DNA from: a virus
Taxonomy: Duplodnaviria > Heunggongvirae > Uroviricota > Caudoviricetes
Reading direction: 5' to 3' (one strand)
Virus record (IMG/VR): IMGVR_UViG_2579778919_000005
Length of the DNA: 4,050 nucleotides
The notes under the pieces are model-generated. The model made no database searches and had not been told where the DNA came from. It saw only the letters and a program-made list of their open reading frames with translations. Shown here one piece after another: positions 1 to 4,050 of this stretch (positions within the stretch are counted from its first letter, which is position 1; the number at the start of each line of letters is the position of its first letter). Made by a program: the position numbers and the translations under genes.

Positions 1-192
1 TCAGGAGCATTTCTGGTTAACGCCACCGTTAAGAATCCACCCTTCAACAGCTTCACGAAGGTATGATTTGGGGTGGGTTCTGACTGGCTTCGGAAATCCG
101 TACCGTTTGGTATAGTTCCAGATTGTCTGACGTGATGAAACACCGAGCTTGTTCATCACTTCTTTCTCAGGAATCAGGCTGGTATCGGTCAT
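1..192 (-). CDS. AlpA-family helix-turn-helix DNA-binding protein (prophage transcriptional regulator / excisionase-like), 63 aa
   Basis: Complete ORF on the minus strand: ATG at 192..190, TGA at 3..1. GGAGA Shine-Dalgarno (plus coords 199..203) sits 6 nt upstream of the ATG. The translated segment EKEVMNKLGVSSRQTIWNYTKRYGFPKPVRTHPKSYLREAVEGWI fits the AlpA/Vis-type HTH pattern recalled from memory (hydrophobic-x-x-E-V, G-x-S-R-S/T-T-I-Y, FP-K-P, trailing W). Size of 63 aa is typical for the family. Confidence 0.8.
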   Translation of the reverse strand: MTDTSLIPEKEVMNKLGVSSRQTIWNYTKRYGFPKPVRTHPKSYLREAVEGWILNGGVNQKCS

Positions 193-269: not shown

Positions 270-614
270 TTAGTCCTTGCGTAGCTCGCTGATTCTTCTG
301 TAAGTCTCTGGCGCTTTGTTTCCGTGTATCTTCATTTCAGACTTCAACAGAGCAACGAGGGAATCCCATTCGTTGAGGATGCCTTTGAATGTCGGAACGC
401 GCTTTGCAACCTTGTCGAATGAATCTCTGATTTCTGGAATCTGCTCAACAAGTGCAACACATCGCCGGAAGTCTGCTGCGTCATGGGGAGCGCCGAAGTG
501 ATGACCATAGATATTCTTTTTCAGTCCACATGCGATTGAGGCAAGAGTTGCGCTACTGATGCCGACATCGCCAGTTGATTGCCATTTCAAAACCTTCATA
601 GCCAAATCTGACAT
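270..614 (-). CDS. hypothetical protein, 114 aa (123 aa if the GTG at 641 is used); no recognisable family
   Basis: ORF track lists a minus-strand ORF 270..641 whose first codon is GTG. An in-frame ATG at 614..612 is preceded by GGAGA (plus coords 621..625) with 6-nt spacing, so I prefer that start. Stop is TAA at 272..270. The protein has mixed, non-repetitive composition and no predicted TM segment. It is in tandem with, and 77 bp upstream of, the AlpA-like gene, so probably co-transcribed. Function unknown; I do not recognise the sequence. Confidence 0.6.
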   Translation of the reverse strand: MSDLAMKVLKWQSTGDVGISSATLASIACGLKKNIYGHHFGAPHDAADFRRCVALVEQIPEIRDSFDKVAKRVPTFKGILNEWDSLVALLKSEMKIHGNKAPETYRRISELRKD

Positions 615-663
615 TTCTTGTCTCCATAAAACAAAACTCACCGTAGCGAGTTCAGATAAAAGA

Positions 664-685: not shown

Positions 686-693
686 GTTATTCA

Positions 694-1089
694 TTGCCGA
701 TATTCACCTTTATCGCGAACACCTTTACAGGAGGACTTGGTTCGACAGCCACAAGCAATCAACTGGCTACGATTGCTCCGACTCTCGGTCAGTCGTGGTT
801 ATCAAACCAGATGAGCAATTACAACAATCTGGCAAACGTTGGGCTTGGTGCGCTGCAAGGTCAGGCAAACGCTGGGCAGACATACGCCAACAACATGAGC
901 AGCATTGCACAGCAAAGCGCAGCACTTGCCGCTGCTAATGCCAATAAACCATCAAGTCTTCAGACAGCAATTAGCGGCGGCACGTCTGGTGCGATTGCCG
1001 GTGCAGGTCTTGCCAGCCTTCTTGAAACATCAACACCGTGGGGTGCTGGCATTGGCGCTGGTATCGGATTGCTTGACTCGTTGTTTTAA
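694..1089 (+). CDS. small Gly/Ala-rich putative membrane-active virion (ejection-type) protein; 5' end uncertain, possibly a truncated remnant
   Basis: Frame-1 ORF ending in TAA at 1087..1089. The track start (ATG 559) gives a Cys-rich, non-protein-like N-terminus and overlaps the divergent minus-strand gene, so I reject it. Remaining in-frame starts are TTG 694 (GAGGA at 679..683, 10-nt spacing) or ATG 811 (no clear SD). The C-terminal part (TSGAIAGAGLASLLETSTPWGAGIGAGIGLLDSLF) is a glycine-zipper hydrophobic segment. Composition matches the next two genes. Confidence 0.45.
   Translation: MPIFTFIANTFTGGLGSTATSNQLATIAPTLGQSWLSNQMSNYNNLANVGLGALQGQANAGQTYANNMSSIAQQSAALAAANANKPSSLQTAISGGTSGAIAGAGLASLLETSTPWGAGIGAGIGLLDSLF
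705..727 (+). repeat. direct repeat CACCTTTA (705..712 and 720..727), with a flanking TATTCA duplication (688..693 and 701..706)
   Basis: Exact 8-bp direct repeat 15 bp apart, immediately upstream of GGAGGA (730..735), inside the uncertain 5' region of ORF1. Could be tandem regulator-binding sites or coincidence. Confidence 0.25.
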
Positions 1090-1098
1090 GGGGTAATC

Positions 1099-1812
1099 AT
1101 GGCTACTTGGCAAGGAACAAACGGCGGATTGTTGGCTGGTATCGGTGGCGTCAACTCAAACGCTCCTAACGTAAATGACATCGGCAATACGCTTCAGCTT
1201 ATCAGGCAGAACAATGATATTGAGCGTTCAGGCGCTAACAATGTTGGGCTGACTGTTTTGCAAGGTCTTTCTGGTATTGCGGGTGTTTTTAAGCAGGAAA
1301 AGCAGGCTCAGCGGCAGAAAGAATTTCAGCGGGCGTACGCTAATGCTTATGCGTCTGGTGATCGCGGTGCTTTGCGTCAGTTGGCTACTCAATATCCAGA
1401 CCAGATTGAATCTGTTCGTAAAGGAATGGGATTCATTGATGAAGACCAGCGCAATTCTATCGGCACCTTAGCGGCTGGCGCACGCCTTGCATCATCATCT
1501 CCAGAAGCAATGCAATCATGGCTGCAAAACAACGCCAAGGAACTGACTCGCGTCGGTGTTGACCCTAATAACGTTGCTCAGATGTATCAGCAGAATCCTT
1601 CAGGATTTGGTGAGTTTGTTGATCACCTTGGGATGGCTGCTCTTGGTCCGATTGATTACTTCAATGTTCAGGACAAGATGGCTGGTCGTGAGATTGACCG
1701 AGGCAGACTGGCAGAGACAATCCGCAGCAATCAGGCTGGTGAAGCACTAACAGCGCGTGGTCAGGACATCCAGATATCGGAAAGATTAGAAATCAGCTTG
1801 AAAGCAAGTTGA
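1099..1812 (+). CDS. putative internal virion / DNA-ejection protein, 237 aa (functional analogue of the P22 gp7/gp20/gp16 class)
   Basis: ATG at 1099 preceded by AGGGG (1090..1093) with 5-nt spacing; stop TGA at 1810..1812. The N-terminus has a glycine-rich hydrophobic stretch (GGLLAGIGGV) followed by a Q/N/A-rich, probably helical, low-complexity sequence. It lies in a co-oriented run of genes directly upstream of a P22-type tailspike gene, the position ejection-protein genes occupy in P22-like phages. The functional call rests on synteny and composition, not recognised sequence identity. Confidence 0.7.
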   Translation: MATWQGTNGGLLAGIGGVNSNAPNVNDIGNTLQLIRQNNDIERSGANNVGLTVLQGLSGIAGVFKQEKQAQRQKEFQRAYANAYASGDRGALRQLATQYPDQIESVRKGMGFIDEDQRNSIGTLAAGARLASSSPEAMQSWLQNNAKELTRVGVDPNNVAQMYQQNPSGFGEFVDHLGMAALGPIDYFNVQDKMAGREIDRGRLAETIRSNQAGEALTARGQDIQISERLEISLKAS

Positions 1813-1814
1813 GC

Positions 1815-1840
1815 ACTGTTAAAAAACAGTTTGATTATCA
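1815..1840 (+). terminator. weak hairpin (ACTGTT-AAAA-AACAGT) followed by TTGATTATCA; candidate attenuator between ORF2 and ORF3
   Basis: 6-bp stem with only 2 G:C pairs and a 4-nt loop, starting 3 nt after the ORF2 stop, followed by a U-rich stretch. If real, it would only partially terminate. Confidence 0.2.
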
Positions 1841-1912
1841 GGAGCCGGTGCAGAATATGCCAGGGCAACAATCTACTACTGGCAGTAACTTTTCTTCACT
1901 ATGGGGTGATTA

Positions 1913-3175
1913 ATGGCTAAAGCATGGAAAGATGTTATCAGATTTGCAGAGCGTGAAGGAGTTCCTCTGCACACCACAGACCTGTTACAACCAACTTCCT
2001 GCGTCGGAAAAATGGCGCAGACTACAGCAGAAAATATCCCTCTGGCTGGCACAAGCGGAATGAGAGCAACGCAACAGGAAGCGAGAAGCCAGTTGGTGCA
2101 GAGATTTGCTGATAAATTCGGTGAGTATGATCCAGCGGTTGTTATTGACAGCCTTAAAGCGAAAACATCAGGAATTCGTCGTGCCGCCGGTAATCGACTG
2201 GAGCAGGTTCAGAATGCTATGGCTGGAGTAAACATTCAGCCTGCGCGAGCAATTCAGCAGATTGATACAGAAATATCTAACCTGCAGAAGCTTGGTAAGG
2301 TTGCTGATAACGAGACTATTTCAAAACTTCAGTCATATCGTGATGAGCTTGTTCGCAATGCTGGTCCTGATGGTCCGGTAAATCTGGATTTGAAGCAATT
2401 AAGCGATCTGCGCAGCCAGTTCAGAATGGACGTGAAGGGTGAGCGACCAGTGTTACCAAACCGTTCCGATGCTGCCATTCAGCGCGTTTACAAGGCAATG
2501 ACCGACGATATCAATGGTGCCATTGGTCAGAATCTTGGCAACGATACTCTCCGTAAATATCAGCAGGCCAATGCCGTCTACGCTGACGAAGCGGCGAAAC
2601 TAAAGAATACCAGACTGAAGAATGTTCTCATGAAAGGCGACCTGACGCCGGAAGTTGTCAACAACATGCTATTCAGCAAGAACAAATCGGAAATTAAGAC
2701 GCTGTATAACTCAGTTGGTCGTGTTGGCCGGGCGCAAATGCGCAATGGCATCATTGGAAAGGCGATGGAGAAATCTGGCGGATCCCCAGCCCAGTTCCTT
2801 CGACAGCTTAACATCCTGCAAAACCATACTGGCATCACATTTAAAGGTCAGGATGCTGCTTATCTGAAAGGATTGAAAAACTACCTGCAATCCACGCAGC
2901 AGGCTGCAAAAGCGGCAGTAACAACACCCACAGGTCAGCAAACCATCCCGTTCATTATCGGGTATGGGACTGCAATGAACCCGGCGACAACTGGCGCAGC
3001 AGTAAGCTACGGCCTTCTTGCTCGCGCCTATGAGAGTAAGCCATTCAGAAATGCAATGCTACGAATGGCAAATACCCCACGCGGATCAACAGCGTTTGAG
3101 AAAGCCATGCAGCAGGCACAAAAGGCCATTAACTCCCTGACTCAGGGTGCTAAGTCTGATGCGTTGTCAGAATAG
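1913..3175 (+). CDS. putative internal virion / DNA-ejection protein, 420 aa
   Basis: ATG at 1913 preceded by GGGG (1903..1906) with 6-nt spacing; stop TAG at 3173..3175. Long, uninterrupted ORF; the competing ORFs on either strand are short and internal. The protein is A/Q/K-rich and probably helical, with a hydrophobic Gly-rich segment near the C-terminus (IPFIIGYGTAMNPATTGAAVSYGLLA). It is the last gene before the tailspike. The functional call is by position and composition only. Confidence 0.75.
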   Translation: MAKAWKDVIRFAEREGVPLHTTDLLQPTSCVGKMAQTTAENIPLAGTSGMRATQQEARSQLVQRFADKFGEYDPAVVIDSLKAKTSGIRRAAGNRLEQVQNAMAGVNIQPARAIQQIDTEISNLQKLGKVADNETISKLQSYRDELVRNAGPDGPVNLDLKQLSDLRSQFRMDVKGERPVLPNRSDAAIQRVYKAMTDDINGAIGQNLGNDTLRKYQQANAVYADEAAKLKNTRLKNVLMKGDLTPEVVNNMLFSKNKSEIKTLYNSVGRVGRAQMRNGIIGKAMEKSGGSPAQFLRQLNILQNHTGITFKGQDAAYLKGLKNYLQSTQQAAKAAVTTPTGQQTIPFIIGYGTAMNPATTGAAVSYGLLARAYESKPFRNAMLRMANTPRGSTAFEKAMQQAQKAINSLTQGAKSDALSE

Positions 3176-3284
3176 CTTCGCAAACACCAGGAATATGCAA
3201 AAACCAAATATGTAGAGCGCAATATTCAATAGATCTCTTTGCATAGACTCATCTCATAATTAACAAATCATAACTGACATTAGT

Positions 3285-3339: not shown

Positions 3340-4050
3340 ATGACAGACATTACAGCCAATGTTGTAATTGGGATGCCTTCGCAACTCTTCACTATGGCGC
3401 GTTCTTTTAAAGCCGTAGCCAATGGCAAAATTTATATCGGTAAAATTGACACTGACCCGGTAAATACTGAAAACCAGATTCCGGTTTATGTAGAGAACGA
3501 AGACGGCTCTCACGTTTCTGTTTCTCAACCAATCATCATTAACGCTGCTGGATATCCGGTATATAACGGGCAGATTGCCAAATTCGTAACTGTGCAAGGC
3601 CATTCTATGGCTGTATATGATGCGTATGGCACGCAGCAGTTCTATTTCCCTAATGTGCTGAAGTATGACCCTGATCAATTTCAGGAAAGATTGCTATCTG
3701 AAAATGGGCCATTATTAGTTGATGATTCAGTTGTTCGTGTAAAACAACCCCTCTCTATGGCAATCGAGAGAGCACAGCACGATAAAAATGCAGATTTTGT
3801 GAGCGCGAAAGACTTTGGGTTTAAAGGTGATGGCACGAATGATGATGCTGCGGTGCTCAAACTTAAAGATTACGTTAACACAAGACCTAAATATTCTCCA
3901 CCAGTATCCGTGTACTTTCCAGATGGAAATTATCTTATTAGCGAGTCATTGAATTTAATTAGACCTGTTACTTTATACTCTTTTAAAGGAGCAACAATAA
4001 ACTATACTGGAACTGACGCTGCAGTTAAGTGTGGAGATCCAACTGACGAA
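3340..4050 (+). CDS. tailspike protein, N-terminal 237 codons (P22 gp9-type head-binding domain plus the start of a beta-helix receptor-binding domain); 3' end lies beyond the window
   Basis: ATG at 3340 with GGAG (3328..3331) 8 nt upstream; the frame stays open to the last base of the window. Residues 1..113 (MTDITANVV...[21 protein letters not shown]...[14 protein letters not shown]...QPIIINAAG...[13 protein letters not shown]...NVLKYDPDQ) match, at most positions, the conserved head-binding domain of P22/Sf6/HK620-type tailspikes as I recall it. After YDPDQ the sequence diverges and contains [17 protein letters not shown] (nt 3808..3858), the motif typical of the start of pectate-lyase-like right-handed beta-helix depolymerases. 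Not in the supplied ORF track because it has no stop inside the window. Confidence 0.9.

Follow-up and report, generated by a model that had tools for sequence, protein, structure and literature searches.

The DNA analysed here, a viral stretch of 4,050 nt that we call the window, carries a 5'-truncated homologue of P22 gene 7 and Sf6 gene 11 (ORF1, 727..1089, plus strand), a homologue of P22 gene 20 and Sf6 gene 12 (ORF2, 1099..1812, plus strand) and parts of their neighbours. By profile match and alignment, ORF1 and ORF2 evidently encode homologues of DNA-ejection proteins from the P22-like (Lederbergvirus) virion operon, and the gene pair is already known, in the order 14-7-20-16. ORF1 and ORF2 share a reading frame and are separated by a single stop codon. 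For this arrangement the initial annotation had offered three readings, namely a nonsense mutation that split one ancestral gene, programmed readthrough, and tight translational coupling of two genes.

Gene remnants in the window

ORF1 was identified by its match to PF25688 (P22_gp7) and by alignment with Sf6. The profile match extends over window positions 727-1086 with 202.9 bits (E=8e-60; curated cut-off of 28 bits) and covers profile positions 111-230 of 230; the region also matches phrog_598. In the protein alignment, 119/120 residues are identical to residues 111-230 of Sf6 gp11. Homology to Sf6 and P22 begins at window position 727, and the frame of ORF1, which is open from 559, is open only by accident upstream of that point. 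The ATG at 811, first taken as the start of ORF1, is the internal Met139 of the gp7/gp11 homologue. A full-length member of the gp7 family has approximately 230 codons, its own start and a gene 14 homologue upstream; what remains here is codons 111-230 and the TAA, preceded by the antisense of early-region genes in place of the gene 14 homologue. ORF1 is, on these alignments, evidently a truncated PF25688 member and a pseudogene fragment.

ORF2 has kept the native N-terminus (MATWQ...) and belongs to the gp20 family; its match to PF16928 (Inj_translocase, P22 gp20) spans profile positions 1-217 of 218 and scores 257.7 bits, where the cut-off is 29.7 bits. Its residues 1-226 align with residues 1-226 of Sf6 gp12 and are 95% identical. 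Full-length PF16928 proteins have approximately 430-470 aa, including periplasmic barrel and C-terminal plinth domains, and ORF2 ends at 237 aa. From the native start, 226 codons run to position 1776 and are followed by 11 frameshifted codons and a TGA, a 3' end (1777-1812) made by a 481-nt internal deletion. The 3' remnant of the same gene continues out of frame (frame 3) at 1777..1913 on the plus strand, as seen by direct reading and by blastn, which places window positions 1775-1939 at 3031-3195 of Sf6 (L001). The TAA of this remnant, at 1911-1913, overlaps the ATG of the next gene (TAATG, 1911-1915).

Comparison with the Sf6 and E. coli genomes revealed three deletions, whose junctions all show microhomology of 2-4 nt. 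The first (J1, 725-727, microhomology TAC) took gp7 codons 1-110 together with the gene start and the upstream operon, and joined gp11 codon 111 to the 3' end of an early gene with an ASCH domain. The last ~13 codons and the stop of that early gene are left at 687..727 on the minus strand, recognized by alignment with the intact gene of L095 and with Sf6. The second (J2, 1775-1776, 2-nt overlap) is the deletion in gp12, which shifted the frame and left the 11 junk codons before the TGA at 1810. The third (J3, 1936-1939, microhomology TATC) is an in-frame loss of 245 codons (735 nt) from the gp16 homologue, gp13. The P22 gene 16 and Sf6 gene 13 homologue at 1913..3175 (plus strand) consequently has 420 aa compared with 665 aa when intact; it matches phrog_770 at profile positions 226-666 of 668, and PF26808 is found on the called gene.

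At the left end of the prophage remnant, adjoining the integrase, lies a 63-aa excisionase or AlpA-like gene (1..192, minus strand; phrog_66, 2e-8), for which the match to PF05930 is weak; the same excisionase-like gene adjoins int in L002 and L256. It is followed on the minus strand by a 123-aa ORF from the ORF list (270..641, profile match to phrog_1229), to which gene callers give 114 aa. The right part of the window (3340..4050, plus strand) holds the start of the tailspike gene, with a P22-type head-binding domain (PF09008, 217.5 bits) and then a pectate-lyase-like receptor-binding domain (PF12708); in the source contig the tailspike has 647 aa (gene table of L256). From position 726 on, the window has 95% DNA identity to Sf6 genes 11-14, whose homologues in P22 are genes 7, 20, 16 and 9.

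We therefore annotate the window, with its exact deletion junctions, as what its sequence indicates it to be: part of a decayed Sf6-like prophage remnant of approximately 8.5 kb beside sbcB. The gene order is yeeZ-yeeY-yeeF-tsuAB-sbcB on the host side, then int, xis, the 114-aa ORF, gp7', gp20', gp16', the tailspike (647 aa), an acyltransferase (666 aa) and IS3. The remnant has lost the late promoter and the greater part of the phage, and a promoter and terminator scan stayed at background level, with no promoter-like or terminator-like excess. The gp7, gp20 and gp16 remnant genes are probably non-functional. The first reading had not recognized the two ORFs as truncated pseudogene fragments.

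The exact 237-aa ORF2 protein occurs in 14 contigs by exact look-up, and the complete window is contained letter for letter in ENA metagenome contig L257 and in Logan contig L259. NCBI assembly GCA_003145915.1 is identical to the window over positions 701-1900, but does not contain all 4,050 nt as an exact match. Junctions J1, J2 and J3 are absent from all 5,426 complete E. coli genomes, and the exact J1 pattern has no match in species-representative genomes.

The junction and its relatives

Direct reading agrees with the coordinates first given for the junction, with ORF1 and ORF2 in the same frame, one TAA apart and a restart after 9 nt. Frame 1 is common to the ATG at 811-813, the TAA at 1087-1089, the ATG at 1099-1101 and the TGA at 1810-1812, and all codon starts of ORF1 and ORF2 equal 1 mod 3. 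The spacer between the TAA and the ATG at 1099 is GGGGTAATC (1090-1098, 9 nt), so the two ORFs are separated by one stop and three sense triplets (G-V-I). A hypothetical read-through translation of the window would give ...GAGIGAGIGLLDSLF-stop-GVI-MATWQGTNGGLLAGIGGV...; for Sf6 gp11-gp12, the corresponding hypothetical junction peptide is ...LLSSLF-X-GVIMATWQGSNGG....

The TAA falls within the Shine-Dalgarno (SD) sequence of the next gene. The stretch 5'-UAAGGGGU-3' pairs with the 3' end of 16S rRNA at -8.4 kcal/mol, and the SD TAAGGGG ends 5 nt before the gene 20 ATG; the 16S duplex and the spacer comparison together define an element at 1087..1098 (plus strand) that consists of the TAA of the gp7 homologue, the SD of the next gene, TAAGGGG(T), and the spacer. 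Equivalent SD sites have -8.4 kcal/mol in P22, -8.6 in epsilon34 and -6.9 in APSE-2. The layout is that of coupled cistrons, on the same strand, with a spacer or overlap of a few nucleotides and the stop within the next SD. No promoter or terminator was seen between ORF1 and ORF2, where the scan stayed at background. In E. coli, TAA is the stop codon that terminates most efficiently and leaks least; Qbeta A1, the classic case of readthrough in a phage, uses UGA. The RNA at the junction (1070-1190) has no detectable structure and folds less well than shuffled sequences (z=+1.23); an Rfam scan gave no family match. A recoding signal at the junction was considered and rejected on account of the unstructured RNA. 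The comparison with known readthrough contexts that had been proposed thus found neither a leaky stop nor a stimulatory structure.

To place the shared frame among relatives, we compared 257 related loci, made up of 240 from IMG/VR, 13 named phages with annotated coding sequences and 4 distant cluster representatives. The IMG/VR loci were gathered by three single-protein scans (Sf6-type, P22-type and epsilon34-type); a degenerate-pattern locus search built from a 40-sequence gp20 alignment was dropped because the alignment was too divergent. The gp7 and gp20 homologues are separate genes in 257/257 loci. A stop, then an SD, then an ATG or GTG is found in every locus, the stop being TAA but TAG in phiSG1, and the ATG or GTG is kept at the aligned gp20 N-terminus in all loci.

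The spacer varies, with lengths of -1, 2, 8, 9, 10, 12 and 42 nt across loci. It is 9 nt, giving the same frame, in Sf6, Sf101, Louie, Proteus vB_BPM-V3 and epsilon34, and 12 nt, again in the same frame, in APSE-2. The frames differ in P22, CUS-3, Bp96115, SEN22 and Sodalis phiSG1, with a spacer of 10 nt, and in Skarpretter and Kc237, in which the genes overlap as TAATG (-1). In the four distant cluster representatives the spacers are -1, 8, 10 and 42 nt, and a PF25688 gene immediately precedes the PF16928 gene in each; L262 has a 1-nt overlap and L263 an 8-nt spacer.

Within the IMG/VR sets, the P22-type loci divide into 59 with 10 nt and 21 with 9 nt (none with 2 nt or lacking upstream sequence), and these two forms are one A apart (GGGGTAATC versus GGGGTAATCA). 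All 80 epsilon34-type loci have 9 nt and a GTG start, with no 10-nt or 2-nt spacers and none lacking upstream sequence. Among the Sf6-type loci, 76 have 9 nt, one has 10 nt, two have 2 nt and one has no upstream sequence; the spacer is identical to GGGGTAATC in 72-73/80. In the Sf6-type loci L004 and L039 the two genes lie in different frames. The 2-nt case that was inspected, L004, has a 1-nt deletion in a TTTT run, after which gp7 ends ...FKG-stop. Overall, 7/17 sampled lineages are in frame compared with ~5.7 expected by chance, an excess that is not significant. The initial annotation had put the chance of a coincidental shared frame at 1 in 3, a rate from which the observed fraction is not distinguishable, and the shared frame is not conserved among relatives. 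On the sequences compared, the frame relation evidently flips freely, even between close relatives.

The 9-nt in-frame spacer is itself very stable in two of the sets (76/79 scorable Sf6-type and 80/80 epsilon34-type loci), which alone could resemble constraint. Recent common descent and selection on the SD-to-ATG spacing explain this stability equally well.

Hydrophobic ends and the search for fusions

Glycine-zipper segments had been noted on both sides of the stop, and GxxxGxxxG motifs do occur in each ORF. ORF1 has two (GGTSGAIAG and GAGIGAGIG) compared with 0.31 expected from shuffles (P=0.049); the single motif of ORF2 (GTNGGLLAG) against 0.31 expected is not beyond chance (P=0.25). The gp7 homologue ends in a Gly-rich hydrophobic hairpin, GGTSGAIAGAGLASLL-ETSTPW-GAGIGAGIGLLDSLF, and the C-terminal motif G-x-x-I-G-x-G-x-G-x-L-x-S-L-F is kept from Sf6 to APSE and phiSG1.

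The P22 structures offer an explanation for the resemblance. In situ cryo-EM of P22 found a gp7* dodecamer together with a gp20 dodecamer (12:12), modelled as separate chains (bioRxiv 10.64898/2026.09.03.749273). The V-shaped C-terminal helix pair of gp7* (hydrophobic, I191...F229) lies within the outer membrane, each gp20 subunit adds one transmembrane helix (residues 51-66) to form a 36-helix pore with gp7*, and gp20 residues 1-47 line the lumen of the gp7* tube (bioRxiv 10.64898/2026.09.03.749273). In Sf6, gp12 alone assembles in vitro into a channel-like oligomer (PMC4755594). The most hydrophobic 15-residue stretches of ORF1 and ORF2 map onto the P22 pore elements, with ORF1 residues 85-99 and 106-120 as the two arms of the gp7 hairpin and ORF2 residues 49-64 (VGLTVLQGLSGIAGVF) as the gp20 transmembrane helix. 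By analogy with P22, the Gly-rich hydrophobic likeness reflects co-assembly in one pore and not ancestry as one polypeptide. The same geometry bears on a covalent link. With the C-terminus of gp7 in the outer membrane and the N-terminus of gp20 far up the extracellular lumen, a 4-residue gp7-gp20 linker could probably not be accommodated, as it would have to bridge ends that are ~47 residues away from each other.

Fusion homologues were sought with two kinds of query. A fused query (gp7 C-terminus, linker and gp20 N-terminus) gave 6,197 matches, and no gp7-gp20 fusion is present among the best 120, all of which cover the gp20 part only (70% of the query length); any close fusion should outscore gp20-only matches and would hence be expected among these best matches. 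An exhaustive HMMER search with ORF2 residues 1-226 against 1.84 billion cluster representatives gave 152 matches. In the best 150 of these, no gp20 domain is preceded by a gp7-sized N-terminal extension and no protein is longer than 515 aa; the domain starts at residue 1 or close to it in all but P0132, P0184 and P0215. These three were examined as candidate fusions and rejected. In P0132 the gp20 domain starts from residue 100, but the protein is a gp26-needle::gp20 chimera, and P0184 and P0215 are chimeras with a replication-type protein and a terminase, respectively; all three arose through other deletions in prophage remnants. A single protein that spans the junction with a sense codon at this position, for which an alignment of homologues had been suggested, was therefore not found among the 120 best matches, the 152 clusters or the 257 loci. 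Two consistently separate genes and no fusion homologue in these searches is the outcome that had been named in advance as speaking against a single split or fused gene.

Explanations for the shared frame

The reading that we favour, at a probability of about 0.94, is that of two distinct neighbouring genes with tight packing and probable coupling, for which the shared frame is a coincidence of the lineage. The gp7 TAA sits inside the gene 20 SD (TAAGGGG), 5 nt upstream of the ATG, so that ribosomes would terminate at gp7 and then initiate or re-initiate at gp20. Translational coupling of the two genes is probable on this layout and would suit the 12:12 stoichiometry of gp7 and gp20, and the 9-nt spacer, which brings both genes into the same frame, would be a chance feature of this lineage. 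Of the tight coupling proposed at the outset, two tightly packed genes fit all the evidence, whereas the coupling itself is something we infer. Coupled phage late-operon cistrons share with the window the stop within the SD, the 9-nt spacer and the TAATG overlap at the next junction, and differ in that the upstream gene of the remnant has lost its own start. The adjacent genes could also be translated fully independently, with gene 20 initiated de novo at its own SD and no coupling, a possibility that we consider doubtful and that differs from the favoured explanation only in degree. The strong SD (-8.4 kcal/mol) and the unstructured initiation region are consistent with it, as is the expression and assembly of Sf6 gp12 alone in vitro (PMC4755594). 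However, coupled cistrons typically have spacers such as the -1 to 12 nt seen here, including TAATG overlaps like those of distant relatives and of the gp20/gp16 junction, and a 12:12 stoichiometry would gain from coupling.

The closest known systems include the gene pairs of Sf6 and P22. Sf6 genes 11 and 12 (NC_005344, CDS 9560-10252 and 10262-11557) have 95% DNA identity to the remnant, an identical junction (TAA GGGGTAATC ATG, 9-nt spacer, shared frame) and the same protein ends, ...GAGIGAGIGLL(S/D)SLF before the stop and MATWQG(S/T)NGG... after the restart. Both Sf6 genes are complete, with 230 and 431 codons, whereas in the window gp11 has lost codons 1-110 and the frame of gp12 shifts after codon 226. 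P22 genes 7 and 20 share PF25688 and PF16928, the order 14-7-20-16 and the TAA with the GGGGTAATC... SD spacer, and conservation extends to the membrane hairpin at the gp7 C-terminus and to the N-terminus and transmembrane helix of gp20. In contrast to the window, the P22 spacer has 10 nt (GGGGTAATCA), which puts genes 7 and 20 in different frames, and the identity of gp20 across its first 226 residues is 48%.

Programmed readthrough of the TAA at 1087, which would yield a low-level gp7-gp20 fusion with a role in the ejection channel, is very improbable. The shared frame, the short 9-nt spacer and its stability in the Sf6-type and epsilon34-type sets would fit such a mechanism, as would the partnership of gp7 and gp20 in one 12:12 assembly. 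However, the frame relation is not conserved, given the 10-nt spacers of P22, CUS-3, SEN22, Bp96115 and phiSG1, the overlaps and the 8-nt spacer; a single A flips the frame inside one lineage (59 versus 21 of 80 loci), and the Sf6 type too has out-of-frame members (L004 and L039). The resemblance to the Qbeta coat/A1 readthrough is one of superficial geometry only, an in-frame ORF after a single stop. Qbeta has a leaky UGA, an extension without its own initiation site and a conserved in-frame relation, whereas the window has TAA, the tightest bacterial stop, a downstream gene with its own strong SD and ATG (GTG in some relatives), and a frame that is not conserved. A stimulatory RNA structure was not found at the junction (z=+1.23), the 4-residue linker would probably be too short for the P22 pore geometry, and the gp7 of the window is without a start, which makes a native fusion impossible. 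The readthrough that had been suggested is thus contradicted by the unconserved frame, the TAA stop, the separate SD and ATG, and the unstructured RNA. The comparative data show that a read-through fusion product cannot be required. Rare read-through of the TAA in the lineages with an in-frame spacer of 9 or 12 nt (Sf6, epsilon34 and APSE), giving a few gp7-gp20 fusions per burst that might nucleate or poison the 12:12 outer-membrane pore, is more improbable still.

We give as little credence to a nonsense mutation that split one ancestral ejection-protein gene, with the pair as a pseudogenized single gene. It could draw on the same frame, on the similar Gly-rich composition of both sides and on the other pseudogenizing lesions of the window, but those true lesions lie elsewhere, at 725-727, 1775-1776 and 1936-1939, and the stop and restart are present in all 257 loci. 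Furthermore, Pfam places gp7 and gp20 in different families, both P22 and Sf6 have them as two distinct virion proteins, and no gp7-sized N-terminal extension precedes the gp20 domain in the best 150 of 152 matches. With two genes at every homologous locus and no spanning protein found, the idea of a split ancestral gene does not hold.

An in-frame stop between compositionally similar ORFs is hence not evidence of recoding when the spacers of relatives vary. The result clears a false lead and matters little for biology; as a by-product, the pore-forming Gly-rich ends of gp7 and gp20 explain the compositional likeness that was noticed first.

Prophage remnant at sbcB and its deletions

The window, which coincides with positions 6903-10952 of contig L257, is part of an Sf6-like prophage remnant of ~8.5 kb that adjoins sbcB; public contigs with this remnant number at least 14. 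Its context, read in contig L256 (1-14906), gives the gene order int, xis, a 114-aa ORF, gp7', gp20', gp16', tailspike, acyltransferase and then IS3, with primes marking damaged copies of the homologues of P22 ejection-protein genes 7, 20 and 16. Because the tailspike (647 aa) and the O-antigen-type acyltransferase (666 aa; Acyl_transf_3 and SGNH) are intact, the remnant suggests that the lysogenic-conversion end is the only part of the prophage being retained.

Relative to Sf6, 1.3 kb of the window holds three distinct deletions, each with microhomology of 2-4 nt. Most of the prophage was lost in a large deletion at J1 (725-727, TAC), a 481-nt deletion at J2 (1775-1776, AT) shifts the frame of the gp20 homologue, and an in-frame deletion of 735 nt at J3 (1936-1939, TATC) leaves the gp16 homologue without residues ~9-253. 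Each of these deletions is absent from all 5,426 complete E. coli genomes.

On the plus strand, 56 open frame-1 codons (559-726) lie 5' of the gp7 homology, spanning the deletion junction J1 and running antisense to the 123-aa ORF. The 176-aa ORF that includes them is an artefact. Gene callers chose the TTG at 694, which gives a 131-aa 'P22_gp7' in public annotations and not the 176-aa ORF.

Deletions in related prophages

A second remnant occupies the same sbcB site in E. coli PSJ-16 (L002). Its left breakpoint lies 1-2 nt from J1 (...ACACCTTTA|; window 720-727 versus L002 4722-4729) and its right breakpoint is in gp20 at CACCTTA (window 1464-1470). The near-common left breakpoint could have arisen by a nested second deletion in a J1-type ancestor, via CACCTT(T)A microhomology, or the position could be a breakpoint hotspot. 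J2 and J3 are both missing from the PSJ-16 remnant, and the left arm common to the two remnants is only 95.7% identical.

Three proteins of a public protein library (P0132, P0184 and P0215) are chimeric ORFs with gp20 fragments, the fusion partners being the N-terminus of needle gp26, a replication-type protein and terminase. These chimeras are traces of further large internal deletions in P22-like prophages, and the erosion of such prophages is therefore common.

Gene boundaries in the 7-20-16 block

The gp7-gp20 spacer varies within one closely related set of P22-type loci (L096-L175; gp20 start at 1201), being 10 nt (GGGGTAATCA or GGGTTAATCA; different frame) in 59 loci and 9 nt (GGGGTAATC; same frame) in 21. 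This polymorphism may stem from mosaic recombination between Sf6-type gp7 and P22-type gp20 alleles, exactly at the gene boundary.

The gp20 and gp16 homologues overlap as TAATG (window 1911-1915), with one base common to stop and start. In Skarpretter, Kc237 and L262 the gp7/gp20-homologue junction is of this type too. Since such overlaps occur at both junctions, the sequences support coupled translation as the probable organisation of the entire 7-20-16 block.
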